Program-made: the position numbers and the translations under genes
Shown: positions 2,219 to 64,000 of the stretch, piece by piece
Position numbering within the stretch: position 1 is the stretch's first letter
Layout: every line of letters starts with the position of its first letter
The notes under the pieces: generated by a model
Told to the model about the DNA's origin: nothing
Database searches by the model: none
What the model saw: the letters and a program-made list of their open reading frames with translations, nothing else
NCBI RefSeq assembly: GCF_030384885.1
Contig: NZ_CP128613.1
Reading direction: 5' to 3' (one strand)
From: Escherichia coli
GTDB taxonomy: Bacteria; Pseudomonadota; Gammaproteobacteria; Enterobacterales; Enterobacteriaceae
Length of the DNA: 64,000 nt

Positions 2219-3205
2219 TTAAACCACCCGATCCAGCCCCAACATGCCGCGAGCCTGAATGAAACAGAGCAGCAACGTTCCCCATAAGGCCATCGTCAGG
2301 TAGGGGCTTATCCCGAGAATATTGAAGCCGCTTTCAATAATTTGCAGAAGAAACAGCGCCAGCACCATACCAATTATCCGCCCGCTGCCGCCGTCCGGAT
2401 TAACCCCGCCGAGTACTGCCGCGAGGATTGACACCAGCAAGTACGATTCGCCATAAGAGGCCTTAGCCGAGTTGAGTTTCGACATCATCAAAAATGCTGC
2501 TACCGCACAAAGCAAGGCGGAAATGACATACACCCATATCAGCACCCGACGCGTGTTAATACCGGAGTAAAGTGTTGCTCGTTCGTTAGAACCAATCAGA
2601 TAAATGGATTTACCGAGCGGCGTTTTCTCCAGCAATATCCACAGCCCCAGCGCCACTGCGGTAAACAACCACATCGGTAGCGGAATACCGAACCACTGTG
2701 CATGATTCAACCACAGCACCCATGAGGGATAATTGGCAATGGCGCTACCGCCTGTCACCAGAATATTTACCCCCTTGAGCAACGTCATCATCCCAAGCGT
2801 TGCAAGAATTGGCGACACTCGAATACCAGCAATCAATACGCCGTTACATAAACCGATTATCACCGCCGCGCCAGCGCCCGCCAGCAGCGTAGCGACAACC
2901 GTAGCAATACCCGGTGGATACTGAGTCGCCACCCACGCCATCACCAGTGAACAGGCGTTAGCAGTGGCAATAATTGACAAGTTAATGCCACCGCAAAGCA
3001 TGGTCACCGCCATAGCCAACGCCAGAATGCCCAGCACGGGCATTTGCGAAGCGACGGACTGGAAATTACTTATCGACCAGAAAATCTCCGGCATAGTAAT
3101 GCTGAAGGCGGCAACAGTTAGCACCAGCAGGCCGATCAAGTAAAACTCAATGTTATTACGCCACGATTTTTTCATAGCAGACTCCGGTTCTGATGCTGAC
3201 TCCAC
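2219..3205 (-). CDS. ABC transporter permease (monosaccharide/CUT2-type)
   Basis: 328-aa highly hydrophobic multi-TM protein; start overlaps the stop of the upstream permease (translational coupling). Confidence 0.85.
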   Translation of the reverse strand: MESASEPESAMKKSWRNNIEFYLIGLLVLTVAAFSITMPEIFWSISNFQSVASQMPVLGILALAMAVTMLCGGINLSIIATANACSLVMAWVATQYPPGIATVVATLLAGAGAAVIIGLCNGVLIAGIRVSPILATLGMMTLLKGVNILVTGGSAIANYPSWVLWLNHAQWFGIPLPMWLFTAVALGLWILLEKTPLGKSIYLIGSNERATLYSGINTRRVLIWVYVISALLCAVAAFLMMSKLNSAKASYGESYLLVSILAAVLGGVNPDGGSGRIIGMVLALFLLQIIESGFNILGISPYLTMALWGTLLLCFIQARGMLGLDRVV

Positions 3206-4143
3206 GCCGTGGCGCTAATGCTGGCAACGATGATGATGCCTGTGATCAATGTTTGCCAGTAAGACGAGACTCCCAATAAATTTAGCCCGTTTTGCATCAC
3301 TGCCAACAACACCACGCCGAGCAAAGTACCGGTTAACGTGCCGCGCCCGCCGAGCAAACTAGTGCCGCCAAGCACCACCGCAGCCAGTACTGTCAGCTCA
3401 TAACCCAGAAGAGAATCGGGGGCGACAGTCATCACCGTCCACGACTGCACTACACCCGCAGCACCAGACATCAATCCCATATAGCCGTAAACGAAAAGTT
3501 GCAGTTTCAGCACGCTAAAGCCGATGCGACTGGCTGATTCACGGTTCCCGCCAAGGGCATAAATTTTGCGCCCTACACTGGTGAAATTCATGATAAACGC
3601 TGTCAGCAGCACAACCGTAATCATGGCGATCAGCGGCAGACCAAGGCCATAGTCATAGCCGTCAACATCGGTGTACTTGAACAACATTACCCCCTGCTCA
3701 AACCACGGCGGAAAGTCGTACAGCCACACACCTTTACTCAACCATAACAGCAGGCCATAGAAAATATTCAGCGTCGAAATGGTGATGATGATAGAAGGCA
3801 CCCGTAGGCGATTAACCAGTAAGGCGTTTATTAAGCCAAGTAAAATGCCGATGCCGCCCGCCAGGGCAAACGCGACAGCAAAGTTGCCACCCATTTTTTG
3901 TAGCAACAGCACCATGCCGTATTGCGCAATGATGGTCATTGCCGGAAACGAAATATCAATTCCACCGGAAATTAACACCACAAACAAACCACAGGCGAGA
4001 ATAGTCAACATGGCATAGTTATTGGCGAGATCGTACAAATTACCGAATGTCAGAAACTCGTCGCTGCGCCAGGCAAGGCCAACAAACAGCCCCACAATCA
4101 GTAATGCCAGCCAGAATTCATGACGTTTTTTCAGTTCAACCAT
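3172..4143 (-). CDS. ABC transporter permease (monosaccharide/CUT2-type)
   Basis: 323-aa multi-TM protein; start overlaps the ATPase stop by 8 bp. Confidence 0.85.
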   Translation of the reverse strand: MVELKKRHEFWLALLIVGLFVGLAWRSDEFLTFGNLYDLANNYAMLTILACGLFVVLISGGIDISFPAMTIIAQYGMVLLLQKMGGNFAVAFALAGGIGILLGLINALLVNRLRVPSIIITISTLNIFYGLLLWLSKGVWLYDFPPWFEQGVMLFKYTDVDGYDYGLGLPLIAMITVVLLTAFIMNFTSVGRKIYALGGNRESASRIGFSVLKLQLFVYGYMGLMSGAAGVVQSWTVMTVAPDSLLGYELTVLAAVVLGGTSLLGGRGTLTGTLLGVVLLAVMQNGLNLLGVSSYWQTLITGIIIVASISATAWSQHQNRSLL

Positions 4144-5668: not shown

Positions 5669-6655
5669 TTAATAAAGTGAGTCAATATTGTCTTTGTTGA
5701 CCAGTAATACCTTATGGAAACGGATAATTCGCTTATCCATATCTACGTCGGCCTTACCGAGATTCTCCATTTCTAATCCAGGTTTGATCTCTTCACCCTT
5801 CAGCAACGTGCTGGCGACGGCCGCGAGTGCGTAACCTGCAGAGGCCGGATCGTAAGTAATCCCTTCGGTGATATCACCACTTTTAATCAGTGATGCCGCC
5901 TGTGAAGGGATCATCATGCCATAGACTGCGACTTTATTTTTCGCCCGTTTCTCTTTCACCGCACGTCCCGCGCCAATCGGACCGTTTGAACCAAAGGAGA
6001 CAACCGCTTTCAAGTCAGGATAGGTTTTCATGAGGTCCAGTGTGGTACGACGTGAGTCATCCACACTCTCGGCAACCGGCATGCGGCGGGTAACTTCATG
6101 CATATCCGGGTAATGCTCTTTCTGGTATTTCACCAGCAAGTCAGCCCATAAGTTATGCTGCGGCACGGTCAAACTACCCACGTAAATCACATAGCCGCCC
6201 TTGCCACCCATGCGTTTCGCCATATGTTCAACATATTCAGCGGCAAATTTTTCGTTATCAATGATTTCGATATCCCAGTTAGCACTTGGCTGACCGGGGG
6301 ATTCGTTGGTCAGAACCACAATTCCGGCATCTCGCGCTTTTTTGAATACCGGTTCCAGCACGTTGGCATCGTTTGGCACAATTGTAATTGCATTAACCTT
6401 ACGGGCGATTAAATCCTCAATGATTTTAACCTGTTGCGGAGCATCAGTACTTGAAGGTCCCACCTGTGACGCATTAACACCAAAGGCTTTACCCGCCTCG
6501 ACCACACCTTCGCCCATGCGATTAAACCACGGCATACCATCGACTTTAGAGATATTCACCACGACTTTTTCCGCTGCCTGGAGCGGCGAGGAAATTAGCG
6601 CAGCGCCTAATAACAGCGAAGACACCATATTGATAACAAAACGTTTATTCATCAT
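5669..6655 (-). CDS. Periplasmic substrate-binding protein (LsrB/RbsB-like, type I)
   Basis: 328 aa with N-terminal signal peptide (…SSPLQAAEK); overall resemblance to AI-2/ribose-binding proteins including the C-terminal NKDNID motif. Substrate unknown. Confidence 0.8.
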   Translation of the reverse strand: MMNKRFVINMVSSLLLGAALISSPLQAAEKVVVNISKVDGMPWFNRMGEGVVEAGKAFGVNASQVGPSSTDAPQQVKIIEDLIARKVNAITIVPNDANVLEPVFKKARDAGIVVLTNESPGQPSANWDIEIIDNEKFAAEYVEHMAKRMGGKGGYVIYVGSLTVPQHNLWADLLVKYQKEHYPDMHEVTRRMPVAESVDDSRRTTLDLMKTYPDLKAVVSFGSNGPIGAGRAVKEKRAKNKVAVYGMMIPSQAASLIKSGDITEGITYDPASAGYALAAVASTLLKGEEIKPGLEMENLGKADVDMDKRIIRFHKVLLVNKDNIDSLY

Positions 6656-52923: not shown

Positions 52924-53053
52924 GAGTGGTTTCTTCACGAATTAGTACGTAAAATCGGTAACGGCTGGAAATCATTCAATACTCACACTATCGAAAGTTC
53001 CCCAGCCAACCGCGGTACGTTCTTACATACGATGTACCGCTGTTCTCTTTACG
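52924..53053 (+). repeat. Copy A of a ~130-bp imperfect direct repeat (non-coding), upstream of ykgJ
   Basis: By-eye alignment with 57096..57227 gives roughly 75% identity, with shared blocks GAAATCATTCAATA(C/T)TC(A/G)CACTATC, CCAGCCAACCGCG and CATACGA. Confidence 0.5.
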
Positions 53054-53076
53054 ATTTATAGCTGTACTGGTGAATT

Positions 53077-53406
53077 ATGAGCAATCTGAATCCATGCATG
53101 ACGTGTGGTGCCTGTTGTGCATTTTTCCGCGTCTCTTTTTACTGGGCCGAAGCCGACGATGCTGGCGGTACCATTCCCGCCAGGCTCACTGAACAAATAT
53201 CCCCTTTTCACCGATGCATGAGCGGTACCAATCAGAAAAACCCCCGATGTATTGCCCTTGCAGGAACACCGGGCAAAAATGCCTGCTGCACGATATATAA
53301 AAATCGATCGTCCACGTGCAGAGAATTCGCCATGTCTGGTGAGAACGGAGAAGTCAATGAGGCTTGCAATCGTGCAAGAGCTAAATACGGGCTGACACCG
53401 TTATAA
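53077..53406 (+). CDS. ykgJ: Cysteine-rich putative Fe/Zn-binding protein
   Basis: 109 aa; CMTCGACC and further Cys clusters. Confidence 0.85.
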
Positions 53407-53428
53407 ATATGCAATAATTAATTGCACT

Positions 53429-53464
53429 GCCCCGCCAGCTATAATCGCGGGGCTTCGTTTTTCA
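53429..53464 (+). terminator. Rho-independent terminator of ykgJ
   Basis: Stem GCCCCGC / GCGGGGC followed by TTCGTTTTT. Confidence 0.65.
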
Positions 53465-53611
53465 GGGATAACAAAACCCGAAACTTCTTCCATCTGCCAG
53501 CAACAATGCCTCTTCCTCTATAGTGTTCTCCGGATCTACAGCATCCTGAAGTAGCGCGATGTACTCACTGGCTATCTGCATCAGAAAGTTAAAAACAATG
53601 TTTTTAACCTA

Positions 53612-53640
53612 TAAAAATGGCGCTGTATTTGCGCCATTTT
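53612..53640. terminator. Bidirectional terminator-like hairpin (AAAAATGGCGC … GCGCCATTTTT) 3' of yagU
   Basis: Perfect stem flanked by an A-tract and a T-tract. Confidence 0.5.
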
Positions 53641-53654
53641 TATCATTCAATGCA

Positions 53655-54269
53655 TTATCTGTTTGAGCCTAAAGGGATCTCAGGGTCTGGCTCATGAGTA
53701 ATTCTGTTTCGTAAATCTCTGCGAATAATTTCAATGGACCAGAACCAGACTAAATGTCCAAAAATTTCAGAAACATTCTCATACCACGGGAGATCAAACA
53801 GAGGTGGCGTCAGTCCCATGAGAGGGAATGAAATCATATGAACAAAAAGTTGGGCTAAAGCACCTGCCAGTAAGCCCTGCCAGAGTTTAATTTTTGGAAA
53901 TACTTCAGCGACCACACAATAACCGACAGCAAACACTATCGAAAAGATAATGTGCGTAACACCAACCCAGTTAAAGACATGCCCGGCAAAGGTATAAACA
54001 GCCGCATTGGGATCTGTCAGCCCCAGCCAGTCTCGAAGAAAAATATACGGAGGATTGAGAAAATTACGGGAGCAATCAATTTGCCCAGCAGCCCTGATTA
54101 ATGATTCCGGGCCACACGCTGCATTAAACATATCCACCGGGCTACGTGGCGGCAATGGAACTTCAGCCCCCCACTTCACAAATGCGGAAACAACGCCAGC
54201 AATTAGCCCAATGAATGCAGCAAGACCATAACGTCTGCGGTTCGGTGGAGTTTGTTCAAATATATTCAT
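53655..54269 (-). CDS. yagU: Inner-membrane protein (DUF1440)
   Basis: 204-aa multi-TM protein. Confidence 0.85.
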
Positions 54270-54331
54270 ATTTACCCTGTTTGTTTCATTATGTTGTACA
54301 CCTCTTCAGGAGTATTCATAAAACAAGATAA

Positions 54332-54500
54332 ATGTAAAGAACTGTATTGTTTTGTATAATGCAATGGTGACTAATCGCCAATTAATATAAGCACCATCAT
54401 TTCTCCATATTTTTATGTTAGAAGTGACAAGGAGAAATGTAATGTTTCTCTCAGAGAATATAAATCATTCCTTTTGCCCACCTTAATGGTGGGCTTTTTT
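54332..54500 (+). ncRNA. Candidate short transcription unit: promoter (perfect -10 TATAAT at ~54355), 14-codon ORF (MFLSENINHSFCPP, 54442..54486, SD AAGGAG) and intrinsic terminator (54476..54500)
   Basis: TATAAT preceded by TG; then an RBS-plus-mini-ORF whose stop sits inside a GC-rich hairpin (GCCCACC-TTAAT-GGTGGGC) followed by TTTTTT. Confidence 0.35.
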
Positions 54501-54865
54501 ATGCAAAACCTGAACACCCTGTGGTATTCCCCTGGCATTATCACTTTCGCGATTAACCAACAGCCAGACCAGCAAACACGCCACTACAGGCACAGCAAAA
54601 TCCATCAGGCTTGCCACACCCCATGCGTGCGGCTCAAAGCCGCCCCGCCATGGCATATTAATCCGCTTACCATTTTCGAACAGCTGATTGGTTTAGTCCG
54701 GTGTTTCCCTGCTTGCACTTAAAAATGAGCGGATGGGAAACTCTCGAAATGGTTCGTCGATATGCTCACCTTTCAGTCAGGCATTTCACCGCGCACGCGA
54801 GCAAAATCAAAGGCACATGAGGAGAATGTGGTTGACTTAAAAACGAGGAAACTTATTGATTTAAA

Positions 54866-54912
54866 TGGTGCCGATAATAGGAGTCGAACCTACGACCTTC
54901 GCATTACGAATT
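54866..54912 (-). tRNA. Pseudo-tRNA: 3' ~47 nt of a tRNA-Thr (thrW-like) = att core of an integrated element
   Basis: The minus strand reads …ATTCGTAATGCGAAGGTCGTAGGTTCGACTCCTATTATCGGCACCA (anticodon arm with CGU, T-arm GGTTCGACTCC, acceptor 3' strand + CCA); the 5' half (GCCGATA…) is absent, so this is a fragment. Confidence 0.75.
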
Positions 54913-55282
54913 ATAAGAATCCGTTTCTAATTCAAAGCATTACCACATCAACACTGCGCTCACACGTCCCACCACATCAAAACATGTAAAGCCTTGCAAG
55001 CCATTGTGAGGCCTTATGTGTCTCAGTTTTGTCCCACCTTGTATTACGACTTGCATAACCAATGAAGATAAACGTGACGACAAACGACGCAGCAGTCTTC
55101 TTTTCTTTCACACTTTCCCCACTCAGCATGCATACCTTCTACTATAACTGTAGTGAATGTCTGTTATGAGCGAGGAGCGGACTATCTTTCTGTGCTAAGC
55201 ACAGAAGTTTAAATTAATAAATAGAGATTAAGATGTTTATTGGTTACATTGATATTTATAATTTGATTGCCTTGAAATTCCT

Positions 55283-55322
55283 AAGCCGAATTCATGACGT
55301 CTTCATCACATGAATTCGGCTT
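55283..55322. terminator. Perfect 14-bp-stem hairpin (AAGCCGAATTCATG … CATGAATTCGGCTT) 3' of the 447-aa cargo gene
   Basis: Exact reverse-complement arms around a 12-nt loop, ~30 bp beyond the gene's stop. Confidence 0.55.
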
Positions 55323-55351
55323 ATGCATAATACTAAGTTGGTTTTATTAAG

Positions 55352-56695
55352 TCATTTCTTTGCCGCGCTTTTATTGCACTTCTTACAGCCTTCAATCAAT
55401 TTTTCAGTTATTATATAATAATAAGGAATGTAAATGTTTAACCCGCAAGTTTTAATCGAATCGAAAGCAAGAACTTTCACAATGGATTCTTCTCCATCTT
55501 TCTCCATTAGCAATATATCACTTAAAGGCAAATCATTAGGATTGTAAATCCTCACATCGCCAGGCTGTCTTTCATAGGCTTCGATGTCATCACCTGGTTG
55601 GCCATAGGCTAAATGAGTGGCTTTAATCCAGTTTATTGGTTCAGCATTTTGACACCAGGAGATTATTTTTTCTAATTTTTCAGGTGTGTAAGCTTTTACA
55701 TAATCTCCATGTTTTTCACATCTACCTAGTTCTGAAAAATGGCCCAGGGTGTATTCATAAGAATAATCACCAGCAGTCAATGGTAGTCTAAAGTATTGCT
55801 GAGGCAATGCCTTCTGGACTTTGGTTTTACTCAGCAAATTAAAGGTGATATCATAAAGTTGATATAGACAAACACCCTCTCGATCTGGATATCCATAAGG
55901 CTTGATGTCAGAAAGCATCTCAATATCAGAATTATAAACACTTGCATAATCATCACTTCCAAACATGAAAAAACCTTTTGATAGAATGAATATTGCATTA
56001 GGAAGAACGTTTTTTTCAAAATTCTGCGAGTGAGTTTTTATTTCTTGTACTATGTCCATCCAATCCATATCAGTATCATAGGCGAAGATAATTCCAAAAC
56101 CATTAGTCTGAATTCTCTCCTCTGAATGTATAAATATGTTCTGATTTATACCATGTTTCTTTAGTTTTTTGAATGAGCGGATATTTTCGAAAGCACTTTT
56201 CAGTTCTTTTTTTGTTAGTTTTGACTTAACCTGAATCACACCATAGCAGTACTCCACAGGTAAAACCTCAAAAATTTCCTGTCGCTGCATAAGCGAAAAT
56301 GAATTAAAAGCATCATAAAAAAGAATGTCGATTTCATTACTGAGATGTCCTGAGGTTGACGCTACACGGACACTTGATTTTGAGATGGCATAGCTTTGCG
56401 GTAAGAGTTTATTTTCATTGAAAAAGCATCTTAAGAGTTCCTCTCTGACAGTACCAACATCTCTTGGATGCTTAATATCTTTCGATATTTCAAAATCTTG
56501 AAGCATTTTCCTCTGTAAGTGAATGAACTCCCTTTCAAGACCATAAAATTCTTTATCTTTAGATCTCAGTTTGCTTGCACGAGAAACTTGATCGGATATC
56601 CATTCCTTTGTGCGAGACTCTCTCTCAGCAAAATCATCACGTTGTTTTTTTACAGCACCGGTCAAGCGTTTTCTTGTGTTTTCATTATCGGACAT
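55352..56695 (-). CDS. Hypothetical 447-aa protein of unknown function (AT-rich cargo gene; possible PD-(D/E)xK-like nuclease motif)
   Basis: Long uninterrupted ORF in visibly AT-rich DNA, K/E-rich N-terminus, a segment (…EIDILFYDAF…EYCYGVIQVKSK…) reminiscent of a restriction-endonuclease-like fold; stands alone between a terminator and the repeat/invertase region. Confidence 0.7.
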   Translation of the reverse strand: MSDNENTRKRLTGAVKKQRDDFAERESRTKEWISDQVSRASKLRSKDKEFYGLEREFIHLQRKMLQDFEISKDIKHPRDVGTVREELLRCFFNENKLLPQSYAISKSSVRVASTSGHLSNEIDILFYDAFNSFSLMQRQEIFEVLPVEYCYGVIQVKSKLTKKELKSAFENIRSFKKLKKHGINQNIFIHSEERIQTNGFGIIFAYDTDMDWMDIVQEIKTHSQNFEKNVLPNAIFILSKGFFMFGSDDYASVYNSDIEMLSDIKPYGYPDREGVCLYQLYDITFNLLSKTKVQKALPQQYFRLPLTAGDYSYEYTLGHFSELGRCEKHGDYVKAYTPEKLEKIISWCQNAEPINWIKATHLAYGQPGDDIEAYERQPGDVRIYNPNDLPLSDILLMEKDGEESIVKVLAFDSIKTCGLNIYIPYYYIITEKLIEGCKKCNKSAAKK

Positions 56696-57095
56696 AAATT
56701 AACCTTAAGTTGATAAGTTTTGTGGTGAATTTATAAAGCCTGAGGGATAAACATTTATAGTCTATAAGTTACTATTTATTTGAGATAGTAAGCCAATTTT
56801 ATTAGATGAAGAAACGTTCATAACCTCCTCAACTACGTTTCAATCGGCAACATCGGAGAAGTACACTTTGACAATATATAGCATATTGAAGCAGCTGTAA
56901 CTTAGAGCGCGTACACTCAAGATTTCCCGCTGCGGTGATGGCGGACGACTGCGTTTGATAACTCATTTCCCTCACCAACTATCGGACCTGTTCCTGATTG
57001 ATTATCACATTATAATGTGAGCAATGTCCGCTCCTAGCACATAGCAGTTCTAGAGACAATGGCGTAAAGTCATGGAGAATCGGTGGGAGGATATT

Positions 57096-57227
57096 CAGTT
57101 TCATTCATGCCGAAATACGGTAAAATCTATAACAGATAGAAATCATTCAATATTCGCACTATCAGAAGCTGGCCAGCCAACCGCGCACGATTTTGCATAC
57201 GACATGCTACGGTTTCATTTATCTCCG
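57096..57227 (+). repeat. Copy B of the ~130-bp imperfect direct repeat
   Basis: See copy A (52924..53053). Confidence 0.5.
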
Positions 57228-57814
57228 ACCGGAAACTTCTTATACAGTGTCGATACACCAACATCATAGATGATCTCCACCTTCTGGCGAGGAACGCCTG
57301 ATGCAATTAATCGCCCGGCCTGCGCCCTTTGTTCTGGTGTAAGTTTGGGACGACGTCCACCAATTCGTCCCTGTGCGCGAGCAACTTCCAGTCCAGCTTT
57401 TGTTCGTTCAACAATCAGTTCTCGTTCCATTTCAGCCAGGGCACCCATCACATGAAAGAAAAAACGCCCCATCGGTGTGCTGGTATCAATAGCATCCGTC
57501 AGGCTGCGAAAATTAACGCCACGTTCGCGCAACTCCTCAACCAGAATGACCAGATGGACAAGCGTGCCGGGACCGGGTTTATTCAGCGCTTCAATCAGGC
57601 GATCGCGCTGGTCAAAGCAGTCATCTCCCACCACATAAGCTGTGATGGACGGGCGGAAAGTGACTTTTCCCAGATCTTCGGTATAGGGCTTGTCGCGGTT
57701 CGGGTATTCATGTGTTTCCACACGGCGACCGGTTCCCGCACTTTCTTCTTCAACCTTAAACGGCACACCTCGAAATGACGCATCCTGAAGCCTGTCTTTC
57801 CACGTCATATACAC
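57215..57814 (-). pseudogene. Pin/Hin/Gin-family serine invertase C-terminal fragment fused to an unrelated N-terminus
   Basis: The C-terminal ~115 aa (…ELRERGVNFRSLTDAIDTSTPMGRFFFHVMGALAEMERELIVERT…RRPKLTPEQ…STLYKK) match the invertase core and HTH; the N-terminal ~85 aa show no resolvase catalytic-Ser region. Confidence 0.6.
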
Positions 57815-57821
57815 TCCGAAA

Positions 57822-57850
57822 ATAAAAAAGCCACCTATTAGAAGGTGGCC
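57822..57850 (-). terminator. Rho-independent terminator of the lipoprotein-like gene
   Basis: Stem GCCACCT / AGGTGGC followed on the minus strand by a T-tract (TTTTTATTTT). Confidence 0.6.
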
Positions 57851-57869
57851 TTGTAATGAATTTTATTAA

Positions 57870-58400
57870 TTAGCGAGTCAGAAACAACGAATCTTTATAC
57901 TTTTGCTGTTGTTCATTTAAATACTTAGCTGTTTCATCGCTGGCAAATGGAAATATTACCGTATTTTTAGGCATGGTAATTTCTTTTTTGTCCAGCGTCA
58001 GAGTAAACATAGGAACATACTGAGCAGAGTAACGCACCGCAGAAACGAGCTCTAGTTTAGACTCTTCAATAACACTTAAATTATCCAGGCTAACTTTCTC
58101 TTCATCTTTTTTCTTTGACGCATTTAAAGTTTTTATTACTTTATTTAATTTCTCCTGAAAATCCTCCTTAAAGTTTTCAGGATTGCCGTCGACAACAAGA
58201 ATCTGTTCACCCTGATTATCTGGAAAAATAATCTTTGCACTTATCAATTTATTTTCTTTATAAACATCACCAAGTTTTATGGCTCCTCCAGATAACTGAA
58301 TAATATGTTCATCTTTAAAGGAGATGTTGCCAGAGATTATGAGAGATGAAAAAATAGCCGCTGCTCCAAGAATTACACTTGCTGTGATATAGCCTTTCAT
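57870..58400 (-). CDS. Hypothetical signal-peptide/lipoprotein-like protein (AT-rich cargo)
   Basis: 176-aa ORF with an N-terminal hydrophobic segment (MKGYITASVILGAAAIFSSLIISG), Lys/Glu-rich, in visibly AT-rich DNA, with its own terminator. Confidence 0.6.
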   Translation of the reverse strand: MKGYITASVILGAAAIFSSLIISGNISFKDEHIIQLSGGAIKLGDVYKENKLISAKIIFPDNQGEQILVVDGNPENFKEDFQEKLNKVIKTLNASKKKDEEKVSLDNLSVIEESKLELVSAVRYSAQYVPMFTLTLDKKEITMPKNTVIFPFASDETAKYLNEQQQKYKDSLFLTR

Positions 58401-58491
58401 TTTTCGCCTATTAACATTTTTCTAAATGTGCATTAATTCTATCACTCTATTTATGACTTACAACCAGCAATACATGTGAGGGGAATCCTGG

Positions 58492-59623
58492 CTACCAAAA
58501 TCGGGTATAGCCAACATCGTGATTTATATCAATGCCACTGGAGCGTGTTTCCGTAACCCGCATACCTGGTGGCATATTTATAAATGATACCTTGATCTCA
58601 CCATCAACTTTTGGCGCGGTAGCTTTATTAATCATGAAGGGATTCGGGCCTGTGGCATCGGAGGCGTTGTTTGCCTGAGCCGGATCCACCGCCGGATAAG
58701 GAGTGTATCCCCGTGCCGGTATTCCCGTCTTCGATATTGTTGAAGGTGGCGCGATCGGTGTTCTGCACCATGTGCAACGGCACCCGGAACAGACGACAGA
58801 TTTCTTCAAGCTGAAACTTGCGGGTTTCCAGGAACTGGCTGTCCTCGGCGTTCAGCGCCATCGACTTCCAGTCCAGCCCCATCTCAAGGATCATCGGGCG
58901 GTGAGCATTACCAAGCCCGGTGTGACGCTCCTCAAAATCTTTCTTCAGGCGCTCATAAGCCTGATCCGACAGCGTCTGTTCTGTACGCAACACACCCGAC
59001 GTCACCGCGCCATTGCTGAACAGTCTGGCCCCGTGCTCTTCGGTCGCAGCTGCCAGCGATATTGCCTCACGGGCATAGGCGATGGGATTCAGTCCCACCA
59101 GACCGTCCAGCGTCAGCGTGCGCACATGCCAGATATCCTCCTGGCTCAGTACATCCGTGGAGCCATCCGGGAATGTGACCTGATAGACCGGCTCCCAGCT
59201 ACTGTTAAGCTTCGGTACCACACAGCCGGGATCGACGGGCAGCAGTTCAGCCACTTCGCCAAATGCTTTCACTTTGTAGGCGTAAAAGTTTCCCCGCAGG
59301 CACAGACAGGTGACCACCAGCTCCCAGAACTCCTGCGGCGTCATATAGCCATTGGGATGCGTGGAGATCAGCTTATGCAGACGTTCGCCAGTGGCTCTCT
59401 GCTTCAGGCTGCCGTTCAGGTGATACAGGTTGCAGGGCAACATCCCGACCGACTCCGCCAGCACCCTGACACAGGAAAAAACCGCCGTCAGTCGCATGGC
59501 CCGCTGGCTGCTGATCTGCTTTCCGGTATAGGTGTCGTAGGACAACCCGATGGCATCCGCCAGCTCTGCTGGCGTGGTCACCGGTGCGTCACTTTTTCGT
59601 TGAAATAATCCCGAAAAGAACAC
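58492..59623 (-). pseudogene. Phage portal protein (HK97 family), frameshifted and truncated
   Basis: ORF 58628..59623 (331 aa) is portal-like until ~58720, where it runs into a low-complexity tail; the continuation lies in another frame (58492..58809). Confidence 0.7.
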
Positions 59624-59805
59624 TATTTACCTCCGCCGACAGACAGCTGTGTACGATCGAGATATCGCGCCACCAGCCACGACCAGAACAGGCACAGCGC
59701 CCCGGCAACAACAAAACCCGCCGGGGGATAAATCAGCCAGGCACCATATGCCAGCAAAAGCGCACCCAGCACGCCCACCAGAGGCGCGAGAATCAGCATG
59801 ATCAT
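59623..59805 (-). CDS. Small hydrophobic protein between portal and terminase
   Basis: 60-aa ORF with two predicted TM helices; stop overlaps the portal start. Confidence 0.4.
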
Positions 59806-59816
59806 AATTACCTCAG

Positions 59817-61550
59817 TTAAAGCGAGCGGATCCCGTAGGACTCAATGTGGTCAGACAGCGTGTCTTCTTTCTCGTACAGCATGGCTCTGCCAACCGCCAT
59901 AATCAGCGCAACTGCACCATCGATTTTGTTTTCCGCCTGCTCTTTGACGGGTTTCACCACATCATCGTTACCCGGAATGGTTTTGCCGACCACGTTGCCG
60001 ATACACCAGGTCATGATGGGATTGCCGTCATGATGAAAGCGCCCCGATTCAATTGCCGCTTCCAGCTCTTTCATCGGGTCGGACATGTTGGTGTAGTTCT
60101 GAATGATAGTGATGGGGTTCAGGTCTTCATCAGCAAGGTCATGTGACAACCCGGTCGCCCCGAAGGGGTCGATGGGTGACTCACTGACCGGGCTGATTTT
60201 GTTCGCCGCTTTGGCCTCCTCGAGGATGTAGCGATAATCCACCTCCGCACCATCGGTAACGGTCAGAACGCCCATTTCCACCCATTTCTGAAAGCGTTCG
60301 GCTGTCCGTCGATCTTCATTTTTCTCGACGCTGTACACCGTGTCATACGGTACCCAGAAACGCGGGGCCACACTGTAGTAATGCGTTTTACCGTCAATCT
60401 CGCGGGTATAAAGTCGCGCCATGCTGTTCATATCCAGCTTACGCGCCAGGTCAAAGGCCAGAATGCACGGCTGCCCCTCGAACTGCTCAAGAGTCAGTGA
60501 TTTATCCTCGCATCTCTGCCAGCTCACCAGGTTGAAATACGCCGAACGCGCCGACACCCAGATATTGAGGTGTTTTGTTTTAAAGACGTTTGCCAGACGG
60601 GCGTTATTTTTCGCACGTTGCTGCTGGCTTAACAAAAACTCGCGATAAACCGACACACCGATATTCGGGTTAGCTTTTTCAAGTACCTGCGGGTCGGTCC
60701 AGTCGTCGCCTTCGTCAACGGTATAGATGATCCCGAACAGTTCATCGTTGGGCACCGAGCCGTTGAGCATCTCGATGACTTCCCGCCGTTTGTCGTAGCA
60801 CGGCCCCTCAATGTTGTACCCGGCGGTGGTAATGGCCCACATCAGTGGCTGGCGTCGCGCCCCCATCCCGGTAAGCATCGTGGTGTAAAGCGCATCTGTG
60901 GCGTGCTCGTGATATTCATCCACCACCGCACAGTGGGGTGATGAACCATCACCGGGGTTACCGATCAGCGGTTCAAACCGCGCACCATCCTCCGGACGGT
61001 TCATGTTTGAGGCGTTAACCTCAATCCCGAACGCTTCCGTCAGCATGGGTGTGCGTTTACACATCAGTCGTGCCGGACGAAAGACTTCCCATGCCTGTTT
61101 CTCCGTCGTGGCACCGGAATACACTTCCGCGCCGAACTCGTTATCACAGGCAAAACAATACAGGGCGACACCGGCAGAGATTGCCGATTTGCCGTTCTTA
61201 CGGGGGATTTCGGTATACACCTCACGGAAGCGGCGCAGCCGGGAGCCTTTATTGACCCAGCCAAACGCGCAGCAGATCACAAAGAGCTGCCACGGCTCCA
61301 GCGTGATGGGCATCCTCTTAAATGCCCACTCACCCTTGGTGTGCGGCAACAGCTGAATAAATTTCGCGGCCCGTTCAGCCAGGTCCTTGTCGAAGCGGTA
61401 ACGAAACGACTTACTTTTTTCCTCCATCAGGTCATCAAGATGGCGCTGGCAGGCCTGAATCACAAACTGGCAGGCCACAATCTTTCCGTGCACGACATCA
61501 CGGGCATACTGATTGGCAGCATTTACGTTGGGGTAAGATTTCCGGCTCAT
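59817..61550 (-). CDS. Phage terminase large subunit
   Basis: 577 aa; ATPase Walker-type region (…EIPRKNGKS…) and C-terminal nuclease region; overlaps the small-subunit gene by 4 bp. Confidence 0.9.
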
Positions 61551-62050
61551 GATTCGATGATTTTCAGAAACGGGTTAGTGGCTTTCTTCTGCCCCGCCAG
61601 GCCAATCAGACGCTGGCGGCTGCTGGGGTCGAGTCCGAGCATTGCCCCCGTACTGCTCATCTCGGACTCCTGTTCTTTTTTGGCGGTCAGCTCCGGATTT
61701 TTGACCATACCGCCCATTGCACCGGTGATGGTGTTGCCCTGTCTGGCAATATTTTTCACGGCACGTCGCCAGAACTCGTAGGCCACGCACCACCGCTCAA
61801 GCACCGCGAGGTCAGTCACGCACAGCAGGCCCTGACCGCAGAGTTCTTTAGTTGTCAGTTGCCACATGATCGTGGCGAGAGGGAGATCTTCTTCAGCGAA
61901 CCACTCCGGTGGCTCAACACCTTTGATGGGCGTAAAAACAGGTTCATCTTTATTCAGGGCTCGCTTGCCGGGGTTTCCGGCCAGCGCCTTGCGCGCCGTT
62001 GGCTTGGGGCGACGCCCGGAACGCCCCGCCGTTCCAGCCATATGCGGCAC
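61547..62050 (-). CDS. Phage terminase small subunit (P27/HK97-type)
   Basis: 167 aa, basic N-terminus, immediately upstream of the large subunit. Confidence 0.8.
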
Positions 62051-62166
62051 TCCTGGTTAAATTTCATTTTTCGCGGGTATAAAAAAACGATGGGGCGGGC
62101 AGTCCGGAAGACGTCAGGTCACAGGGATTTGACCCGCCCCTCCCCTCTGGCAGTGGGAACTGGTTC

Positions 62167-62517
62167 TTACTTCAGCCGTTCACGGGCCGTCTTCGCCTTA
62201 TGACACGGCCAGCACAAACTCTGCAGATTACTGTCGACATCAGTGCCGCCATGCGATTTAGGGATGATGTGGTCAACGGTCTTCGCCTCACGCACCACAC
62301 CAGCACGCAGACATAACTGACACAGGCCTTTGTCACGCTTCAGGACACGCGCGCGGATACTGTCCCACTTCGAACCGTAGCCGCGCTGATGACGGGATTG
62401 TCCAGGTTTGTATTGCTTCCAGCCTTCGCTTTTGTGGCTTTCGCAGTAGCCTGAAGGGTCCGTGGTTGTAAAGCGGCAGCCGCGAACACGGCAGGCTTTT
62501 GGGGTTCGTGGGGGCAT
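62167..62517 (-). CDS. HNH endonuclease (packaging-associated)
   Basis: 116 aa; HNH motif (…VDHIIPKSHGGTDVDSNLQSLCWPCHKAKT…) with a zinc-finger cysteine pair; typical position before terS. Confidence 0.85.
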   Translation of the reverse strand: MPPRTPKACRVRGCRFTTTDPSGYCESHKSEGWKQYKPGQSRHQRGYGSKWDSIRARVLKRDKGLCQLCLRAGVVREAKTVDHIIPKSHGGTDVDSNLQSLCWPCHKAKTARERLK

Positions 62518-63041
62518 ATGTACTCCAATGAAGAAACCAGCGAAATAGCTGCCTTCATTCGTAGTAAACCTTTTTCATCAACGCAGTAATGGATTCTTTG
62601 AAGAGTCGCGATCAATACAACTCACTAATGGAGAGACTTGTCTCACGCATGAGACAAATTTCCCGTTTGATTTAATGGACACTATAGAGGGACAGAATGC
62701 CTTCCTCACTCGAATCACATCAATTAAGGAGGTTCAACATGTTTCATTCCACAAGTCATCAGGCTGTAATTATGGCAGCATCAGTTTGTGCCAAAGACCT
62801 TTTCCGCTTCACTTTGAGCCTGATTCATTTCTACCTGACCGGCTCGCCTCTATCTTTTTAATCCCCGCTTTATCCAAATTGCATTGCCATAATGCCGACA
62901 ACACACTGACATTCAAATCCAGACTACCTCCAATAGTCTGACCGTACACCTATATAGTTTTAATTTTCATCAATCCATTTAACTATCGTTTAATTGTTGT
63001 CACATAGGATTCTGCCGTTTTTAACAATGCAGGATAATAAG

Positions 63042-63335
63042 ATGAAAAAAATGTTGTTTTCTGCCGCTCTGGCAATGCTTATTACAGGATGTGCTCAACA
63101 GACGTTTACTGTTGGAAACAAACCGACAGCAGTAACACCAAAAGAAACCATCACCCATCATTTCTTCGTTTCGGGAATTGGACAGGAGAAAACTGTTGAT
63201 GCAGCCAAAATTTGTGGCGGCGCAGAAAATGTTGTTAAAACAGAAACCCAGCAAACATTCGTAAATGGATTGCTCGGTTTTATTACTTTAGGCATTTATA
63301 CTCCGCTGGAAGCGCGTGTGTATTGCTCACAATAA
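63042..63335 (+). CDS. bor: Bor-like outer-membrane lipoprotein
   Basis: 97 aa from MKKMLFSAALAMLITGC (lipobox); sequence essentially as I recall lambda Bor. The track ORF starts earlier at 62994. Confidence 0.85.
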   Translation: MKKMLFSAALAMLITGCAQQTFTVGNKPTAVTPKETITHHFFVSGIGQEKTVDAAKICGGAENVVKTETQQTFVNGLLGFITLGIYTPLEARVYCSQ

Positions 63336-63366
63336 TTGCATGAGTTGCCCATCGATATGGGCAGCT

Positions 63367-63828
63367 CTATCTGCACTGCTCATTAATATACTTCTGGGTT
63401 CCTTCCAGTTGTTTTTGCATCGTGATCAGCCTCTCTCTGAGGGTGAAATAATCCCGTTCAGCGGTGTCTGCCAGTCGGGGGGAGGCTGCATTATCCACGC
63501 CGGAGGCGGTGGTGGCTTCACGCACTGACTGACAGACTGCTTTGATGTGCAACCGACGACGACCAGCGGCAACATCATCACGCAGAGCATCATTTTCAGC
63601 TTTCGCATCAGCTAACTCCTTCGTGTATTTTGCATCGAGCGCAGCAACATCACGCTGACGCATCTGCATGTCAGTAATTGCCACGTTCGCCAGCTTCAGT
63701 TCTCTGGCATTTTTGTCGCGCTGGGCTTTGTATGTAATGGCGTTATCACGGTAATGATTAACCGCCCATGACAGACAGACGATGATGCAGATAACCAGAG
63801 CGGAGATAATCGCGGTTAATCTGTTCAT
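63367..63828 (-). CDS. Rz: Lysis protein Rz (i-spanin)
   Basis: 153 aa, N-terminal TM anchor and coiled-coil region; start ATG overlaps the endolysin stop (ATGA). Confidence 0.9.
63426..63608 (-). CDS. Rz1: Lysis lipoprotein Rz1 (o-spanin), embedded in Rz in the +1 frame
   Basis: 60 aa with lipobox LVVVGC and proline-rich [15 protein letters not shown], entirely inside Rz. Confidence 0.85.
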
Positions 63829-64000
63829 ACCTCAATCTCTCTGACCGTTCCGCCCGCTTCTTTGAATTTTGCAATCAGGCTGTCAGCCTTATGCTCGAAC
63901 TGACCATAACCAGCGCCCGGCAGTGAAGCCCAGATATTGCTGCAACGGTCGATAGCCTGACGAATATCACCGCGATCAATCATCGGTAAAGCGCCACGCT
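63825..64000 (-). CDS. R: Endolysin R (lambda-type lytic transglycosylase), C-terminal part only; the gene continues past the window end
   Basis: Manual translation of the minus strand gives …[56 protein letters not shown], matching the lambda R C-terminus. Confidence 0.8.

Follow-up and report, generated by a model that had tools for sequence, protein, structure and literature searches.

We analyzed a 64,000-nucleotide stretch of Escherichia coli DNA (contig NZ_CP128613.1 of assembly GCF_030384885.1; referred to here as the window), close to whose end the overlapping spanin genes Rz and Rz1 lie within a prophage remnant (Table 1). The original prediction, which was made from the sequence alone, had described Rz1 as a gene of 60 codons that is contained entirely in Rz, in the +1 frame, with both frames open. 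The table of open reading frames confirms this arrangement: 220 nt separate the start codons of the two genes (220 mod 3 = 1), and Rz1 ends 59 nt ahead of the Rz stop codon. The start of Rz and the stop of the endolysin gene R overlap in the sequence ATGA, and the ATG of Rz1 is preceded by an AAGGAG ribosome-binding site.

Table 1. Features of the prophage remnant in the window (positions count from the first nucleotide of the window)
Feature	Position	Strand	Description
R (lambda-type endolysin/transglycosylase), 3' end	63825..64000	-	last 58 codons, cut by the window end
Rz, i-spanin	63367..63828	-	ATG start, 153 aa; PF03245, 181 bits; 150/153 aa identical to lambda Rz
Rz1, o-spanin lipoprotein	63426..63608	-	ATG start, 60 aa; PF06085, 72 bits; 59/60 aa identical to lambda Rz1
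bor/iss, outer-membrane lipoprotein	63042..63335	+	97 aa, open; lipobox ITGC; PF06291, 107 bits, residues 19-95
SfIV-type o-spanin (Rz1) relic	62809..62928	-	last 39 codons and stop; between bor and HNH
HNH endonuclease	62167..62517	-	116 aa, intact
terS, small terminase subunit (P27 family)	61547..62050	-	intact
terL, large terminase subunit	59817..61550	-	577 aa, intact
ymfR-like small ORF	59623..59805	-	60 aa, intact
Portal gene, truncated	58628..59623	-	about 298 first codons homologous to an intact 413-aa portal
Tape-measure gene, 3' end	58492..58729	-	last 79 codons, joined to portal
Hypothetical tail-region ORF	57870..58400	-	176 aa, intact
Chimeric ORF	57215..57814	-	199 aa, open; DNA-circularization protein N terminus and Pin invertase C terminus
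DUF6602 protein	55352..56695	-	447 aa, intact; beside pin at the distal prophage end; nuclease-like cargo gene
thrW (tRNA-Thr), partial copy	54866..54911	-	46 nt, 3' part; attachment-site repeat, yagU side

An embedded spanin pair of the lambda type

The match of Rz to PF03245 covers residues 29 to 153 and, like that of Rz1 to PF06085, lies far above the Pfam cut-off (25.4 and 27.9, respectively); none of Rz, Rz1, R, the holin, and the spanin relic was assigned to an NCBIfam family. An N-terminal transmembrane domain is predicted at about residues 5 to 23 of Rz (best 19-residue hydropathy window from residue 5, mean 2.63), and the cysteines of the protein are found at positions 14, 18, 99, and 152. 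Rz1 has cysteines at positions 9, 20, and 29 and a VVGC lipobox with Cys20 followed by Thr21 at +2, i.e., without the Asp at this position that serves as an inner-membrane retention residue. Its mature form contains 10 prolines, and the PPPPP run at residues 32 to 36 is intact. The roles of the Rz cysteines and of the Rz1 cysteines and prolines are described in the near-saturating Rz/Rz1 mutagenesis of Cahill et al. (PMC5295617), according to which the whole transmembrane domain of Rz (residues 4 to 24) can be replaced by an artificial one.

In a base-by-base alignment, Rz differs from lambda Rz at 9 nt (98% identity), with three conservative amino acid changes (S2N, V4L, and A49V), and Rz1 differs at a single nucleotide, which changes one residue of the signal peptide (L2R). 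None of these four amino acid changes is located at a position reported to be lysis defective (PMC5295617, Table 3), and all functional residues are conserved. The alignment with lambda revealed no inactivating mutation in either gene, the type of change that the original prediction had named as refuting it. Moreover, Rz1 is 100% identical to the Rz1 proteins of phage PhiR47_2 and of the AR Bank #0349 prophage. Every trait of a lambda-type two-component spanin with embedded architecture that can be tested on sequence was found in the pair.

In lambda, the type II inner-membrane protein Rz and the outer-membrane lipoprotein Rz1 form disulfide-linked homodimers, bind each other through their C termini, and disrupt the outer membrane after the holin and the endolysin have acted, probably by membrane fusion (PMC5295617; PMC6139136). 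Given the near-identity to lambda, Rz, with its periplasmic coiled coils, and Rz1 would form a complex that spans the periplasm during the lytic cycle. In this scheme, the holin would free the endolysin, the cell wall would be degraded, and the Rz/Rz1 complex would then fuse the inner and outer membranes. Embedding is one of three common arrangements and is found in 182 of 528 two-component spanin systems (PMC6139136). The pair is a textbook case of overlapping genes and a feature of an already known kind.

An open +1 frame of the length of Rz1 is not improbable by itself, since +1 ORFs of at least 60 amino acids occurred in 52% of synonymously recoded Rz sequences and in 20% of codon-order shuffles. 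These frequencies could be taken to mean that Rz1 is a chance open frame and not a gene in this remnant. Given that they make the open frame unsurprising, the case for a gene comes from homology, that is, from the near-identity to lambda, together with the lipobox, Cys29, the ten prolines, and the AAGGAG site. Here, 59 of the 60 amino acids are shared with the experimentally characterized lambda Rz1, and the 72-bit match to PF06085 points in the same direction. Variable sites are also scarcer within the overlap (6 of 183) than in the rest of Rz (25 of 279; Fisher p = 0.02, across eleven related sequences that are not phylogenetically independent). Homology to a gene with a demonstrated product and function refutes, for practical purposes, the notion of a chance frame, to which we assign next to no probability.

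Gene content and extent of the remnant

Just downstream of Rz, 31 nt from its end and on the strand opposite to the lysis genes, lies bor/iss, whose reading frame is open, in agreement with the original prediction. Its protein is identical (0 amino acid differences) to the RefSeq Iss allele WP_000738423.1 (found at loci L002, L010, and L013-L015), and the gene differs from lambda bor by 19 nt and 8 amino acids. In lambda, bor is expressed in lysogens. If any gene in this neighborhood is under host selection, it would, if anything, be bor/iss. On the other side of Rz, the fragment of R differs from lambda R by 5 nt and 1 amino acid; Pfam returned no family for R. Taken alone, the window holds too little of R (58 codons) and none of the holin to judge whether these genes are intact.

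The block at 62520-62928 shows 87.5% nucleotide identity to a region of phage SfIV that takes in the last part of the o-spanin gene and the upstream sequence of HNH. Lambda-like homology begins at this relic of a second, unrelated o-spanin gene of the SfIV type (about 62919-62927), so that the relic marks a mosaic joint, at which recombination replaced an older lysis cassette with a lambda-type R-Rz/Rz1-bor module. The Rz/Rz1 genes of SfIV have the overlapped architecture, whereas the working pair of the window is of the lambda type and the SfIV o-spanin is reduced to 39 codons. The same relic in strain TUM9868 carries the RefSeq label of a partial “Rz1 lytic protein.”

The prophage had been described as decayed, and this is the case: its portal gene is truncated, and tail and head genes are deleted. 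We mapped the deletions by alignment with a fuller copy of the prophage in strain HZ13. Portal homology stops at 58728/9, from where the frame runs for 33 codons into foreign sequence, and the corresponding deletion between portal and tape-measure genes spans 8,235 bp relative to the HZ13 prophage, with a 2-nt microhomology. The second deletion (7,165 bp relative to the HZ13 prophage; junction at 57555/6; likewise a 2-nt microhomology) generated the chimeric ORF, in which the first ∼87 residues of a Mu-like DNA-circularization protein are followed by the remainder of the Pin catalytic domain and a helix-turn-helix. In PADLOC, the DUF6602 protein matched a PD-(D/E)xK model (E = 2e-27) and NucC-type nuclease effector models (E = 3e-17), and it may be an anti-phage cargo gene. 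The E. coli strains HZ13 and EH10-18-47 have copies that are 99% identical.

With ARAGORN, no tRNA was detected in positions 53000-64000, and the 46-nt partial tRNA-Thr was recognized by alignment to E. coli strain 2013C-4282. At 54700-54911, an older integrase fragment accompanies this thrW copy, followed by the host gene yagU. Apart from the same integrase fragment, which stands ahead of the complete thrW, the site is empty in 2013C-4282, indicating that elements with related integrases have used thrW in turn. Within 53655-54911, yagU almost directly adjoins the thrW sequence and the paoABCD operon is absent, whereas in an ST540 strain it stands beside yagU. K-12 presumably also has paoABCD, together with the CP4-6 region, at the yagU/thrW locus.

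The region past position 64000 was read from a contig of another sample (L006; Logan ERR2987533), which is 100% identical to positions 57611-64000 of the window and extends 4,134 nt further; we infer the same content for the window's genome. The extension contains complete R, holin, Q, ylcG-like, rusA, ybcO, and ninE genes and the C-terminal part of ybcN. R encodes 158 amino acids, matching PDB 1AM7 over residues 2 to 158 (E = 9e-102), the holin covers positions 2 to 78 of the 78 of PF16083, and Q covers positions 1 to 217 of the 220 of PF06323. The ybcN-ylcG block is 98.2% identical to that of the K-12 cryptic prophage DLP12. The truncated ybcN is joined directly to a xis fragment, which is followed by a 387-amino-acid integrase beside the 3' end of thrW, suggesting that a third deletion, from xis' to 'ybcN, removed the whole early region (immunity, N, replication, and recombination) from the window's genome as well. 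The remnant in this genome would thus comprise ∼13 kb, integrated at thrW and bounded by thrW repeats. Its decay consists of three large deletions without point-mutation decay, and all genes outside the junctions are intact. The remnant would then have been produced by three illegitimate deletions, namely, xis'-'ybcN, portal-tape measure (8.2 kb), and DNA-circularization-pin (7.2 kb).

With the upstream part taken from L006, Rz and Rz1 would be the last genes of a Q-S-R-Rz/Rz1 late operon. The segment that separates Q from the holin (L006 positions 3204-3456, i.e., about 64680-64930) contains a sigma-70-like TTGCAA-17-TATATT sequence followed by three terminator-like hairpins, and this putative promoter at the end of Q resembles the pR'-tR' late-promoter arrangement of lambda. 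Given that the immunity, N, and replication region is gone and that Q has neither pR nor N upstream, the cassette is probably silent unless its own Q is expressed or a compatible Q from another prophage activates the late promoter.

Related cassettes in phages, genomes, and plasmids

The window shares with lambda the gene order R-Rz(Rz1)-bor, the orientation of bor against the other genes, the product lengths of 153, 60, and 97 amino acids, and the +1 embedding at the same offset. It differs from lambda, apart from the changes in Rz and Rz1 listed above, in having a bor of the Iss type (8 amino acids), an upstream holin and Q from other families, and an adjacent packaging module of the HNH/P27-terminase/HK97-like kind in place of lambda Nu1/A. 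DLP12 has likewise kept int, ybcN-ninE-ybcO-rusA-ylcG, Q, holin, endolysin, an embedded Rz/Rz1 pair, and bor, and has lost its head and tail genes. Its cassette is essD-rrrD-rzpD/rzoD-borD, where RzpD and RzoD differ at 8 of 153 and 1 of 60 amino acids, respectively. DLP12 is located at argU, and the remnant described here is located at thrW. Moreover, DLP12 carries IS insertions and point-mutation pseudogenes, whereas the thrW remnant shows deletion junctions only and therefore looks younger than DLP12. The survival of Rz/Rz1 beside bor/iss in defective lambdoid prophages is thus already documented by DLP12, and it is no general rule. In a survey of 1,384 prophages, lysis genes were preferentially lost in incomplete prophages (PMC7744054).

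Matches to the cassette were found in 5,178 of 5,426 complete E. coli genomes, and about half of the genomes (2,667) had matches with at least 80% coverage. The closest copy (99.3%) is located in an apparently complete lambda-like prophage. No record among the same 5,426 genomes covers at least 80% of positions 53000-64000, the part searched for the remnant. The ST540 strain (locus L002) carries an independent remnant at the same chromosomal locus, which keeps S-R-Rz-iss. In the otherwise complete-looking relative prophage of TUM9868 (6148-6609), the Rz annotated by RefSeq falls short of the 462-nt ORF by 54 nt, and Rz1 carries the change C9Y.

Among plasmids, the cassette matched 674 records, of which 550 belong to conjugative plasmids. 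In 10 of the 12 plasmid rows that we sampled, the match consists only of iss and the 3' part of Rz, at ∼90% identity, and ends just inside the start of Rz1. The iss region of these ColV-type plasmids thus resembles the window in its lambda-derived bor/iss and in the flanking 3' part of Rz/Rz1 but differs in that Rz is 5' truncated and Rz1 is frameshifted, while both genes are complete in the window. We read a single plasmid, pEC598, closely: the first ∼75 codons of Rz are missing (the cut falls near codon 76) and indels shift the frame of Rz1, whereas iss is 100% identical to the iss reference. The pattern of a retained iss beside a truncated Rz and a frameshifted Rz1 would apply to about 500 ColV-type plasmids. 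The frameshifted Rz1 of pEC598 (2920-3300) is still annotated as an o-spanin gene by PGAP. Where time has passed, as on the ColV-type plasmids with their ∼90% identity, the spanins decay while iss survives.

Recent deletions versus selection on the lysis genes

The original prediction had noted an intact lysis/bor cassette beside decayed structural genes and had proposed either selective retention or very recent acquisition. Both halves of the observation are correct, but the contrast was overstated, since terL, terS, HNH, the ymfR-like ORF, and the 176-amino-acid ORF are intact too. Given that terL, terS, and HNH are as intact as the lysis genes, the lysis/bor cassette is not specially preserved. 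A comparison of constraint with the portal pseudogene across relatives, which had been suggested as a check, was carried out here as pN/pS. The portal fragment showed values of 0.00 to 0.07 against six intact relatives, and terL showed 0.03 to 0.07. For Rz, we obtained 0.15 to 0.31, i.e., values above those of the portal pseudogene, so the expected stronger constraint on Rz did not appear.

Substitutions private to the window gave a similar picture. We counted 17 in 5,272 nt, of which 13 were synonymous and 4 were non-synonymous, with no contrast between modules, although such lineage-specific changes are so few that dN/dS contrasts have low power. The portal fragment contributed 3 synonymous and 0 non-synonymous changes. 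The low pN/pS of the portal, together with private changes that are all synonymous, argues that most of its divergence is older than the truncation, and the truncated gene appears to be without relaxed constraint. In terL, 3 of the 5 private changes were non-synonymous, which could be a first sign of relaxation or noise. Stronger constraint on the lysis genes than on the portal pseudogene was rejected by both pN/pS and the private changes. A look-up of the truncated portal protein retrieved four short-read contigs from independent public sequencing samples, one of them L006; these strains share the deletion junctions and differ by 0 to 1 SNP, leaving no within-lineage divergence for dN/dS.

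The age of the element can be approached from its chromosomal surroundings. Over 28,912 nt of chromosomal flank, only 4 SNPs separate the window from E. coli 2013C-4282, whose thrW site is empty. The presence/absence difference between the two strains is therefore very young. According to our calculation, one or the other frame would be closed by 8% of the single-base changes in the Rz region. Considering substitutions only, the probability that both frames are still open in the absence of selection is 0.997 on the SNP-based time scale and 0.89 if all private divergence is placed after the decay. Of the two explanations offered originally, recency is supported for the remnant, by the portal pN/pS, the empty thrW site, the 0 to 1 SNP among the four samples with the truncated portal, and these probabilities, whereas selection on Rz/Rz1 finds no support: its pN/pS exceeds that of the portal, and the pair is broken on ColV-type plasmids. 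We consider it likely (with a probability of roughly 85%) that Rz and Rz1 are ordinary, presumably functional spanin genes of the lambda type that are intact because the deletions in the remnant are recent and have left no time for inactivating point mutations, and not because of selection. Where recent large deletions have shaped a remnant, an intact ORF is thus no evidence of selection.

Among the alternatives, the host might keep bor/iss, which encodes a serum-resistance lipoprotein, with Rz/Rz1 surviving because deletions there risk losing or silencing bor/iss. The bor/iss protein is indeed a widespread Iss allele, each of two different remnants at this locus has kept iss, and iss recurs with the 3' part of Rz in 10 of the 12 sampled rows from the 674 plasmid records (550 conjugative), where pEC598 keeps it. 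These same plasmids, however, show that iss needs no intact neighbors, with Rz cut at about codon 76 and indels in Rz1 at ∼90% identity, and genes far from bor (terL, Q, and int) are just as intact, so that no local effect is needed. We therefore regard this explanation as unlikely. The host could instead select for S-R-Rz/Rz1 itself, for a role in cell wall turnover, biofilm, or the control of vesicles, as has been suggested for DLP12. That prophage retains the same set of genes, from int and ybcN-ninE-ybcO-rusA-ylcG-Q to S-R-rzpD/rzoD-borD, with its structural genes lost, deletion of its lysis module is reported, for DLP12 only, to raise vesicle production (PMC7918800), and the ST540 remnant keeps the module too. 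Yet the constraint on Rz (pN/pS of 0.15 to 0.31, at low power) is not stronger than that on the portal pseudogene or terL, the intactness of the frames is expected by chance (0.89 to 0.997), the near-identical strain 2013C-4282 lives without the element, and incomplete prophages tend to lose their lysis genes preferentially (1,384 surveyed; PMC7744054), making selection of this kind very unlikely here.

Even slightly less probable, in our estimation, is a role of the thrW remnant as a retained late-operon unit (Q, holin, endolysin, Rz/Rz1, HNH-terS-terL, and cos) that would be switched on by the Q of a coresident prophage or by stress and would aid host lysis, vesicle release, or the packaging of adjacent chromosomal DNA. 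If true, this would give a host- or helper-dependent function to a prophage fragment without immunity and replication genes of its own. Best matches of 96% had also brought up a host other than E. coli, a candidate that we rejected, with the core flank being 99.99% identical to E. coli 2013C-4282.
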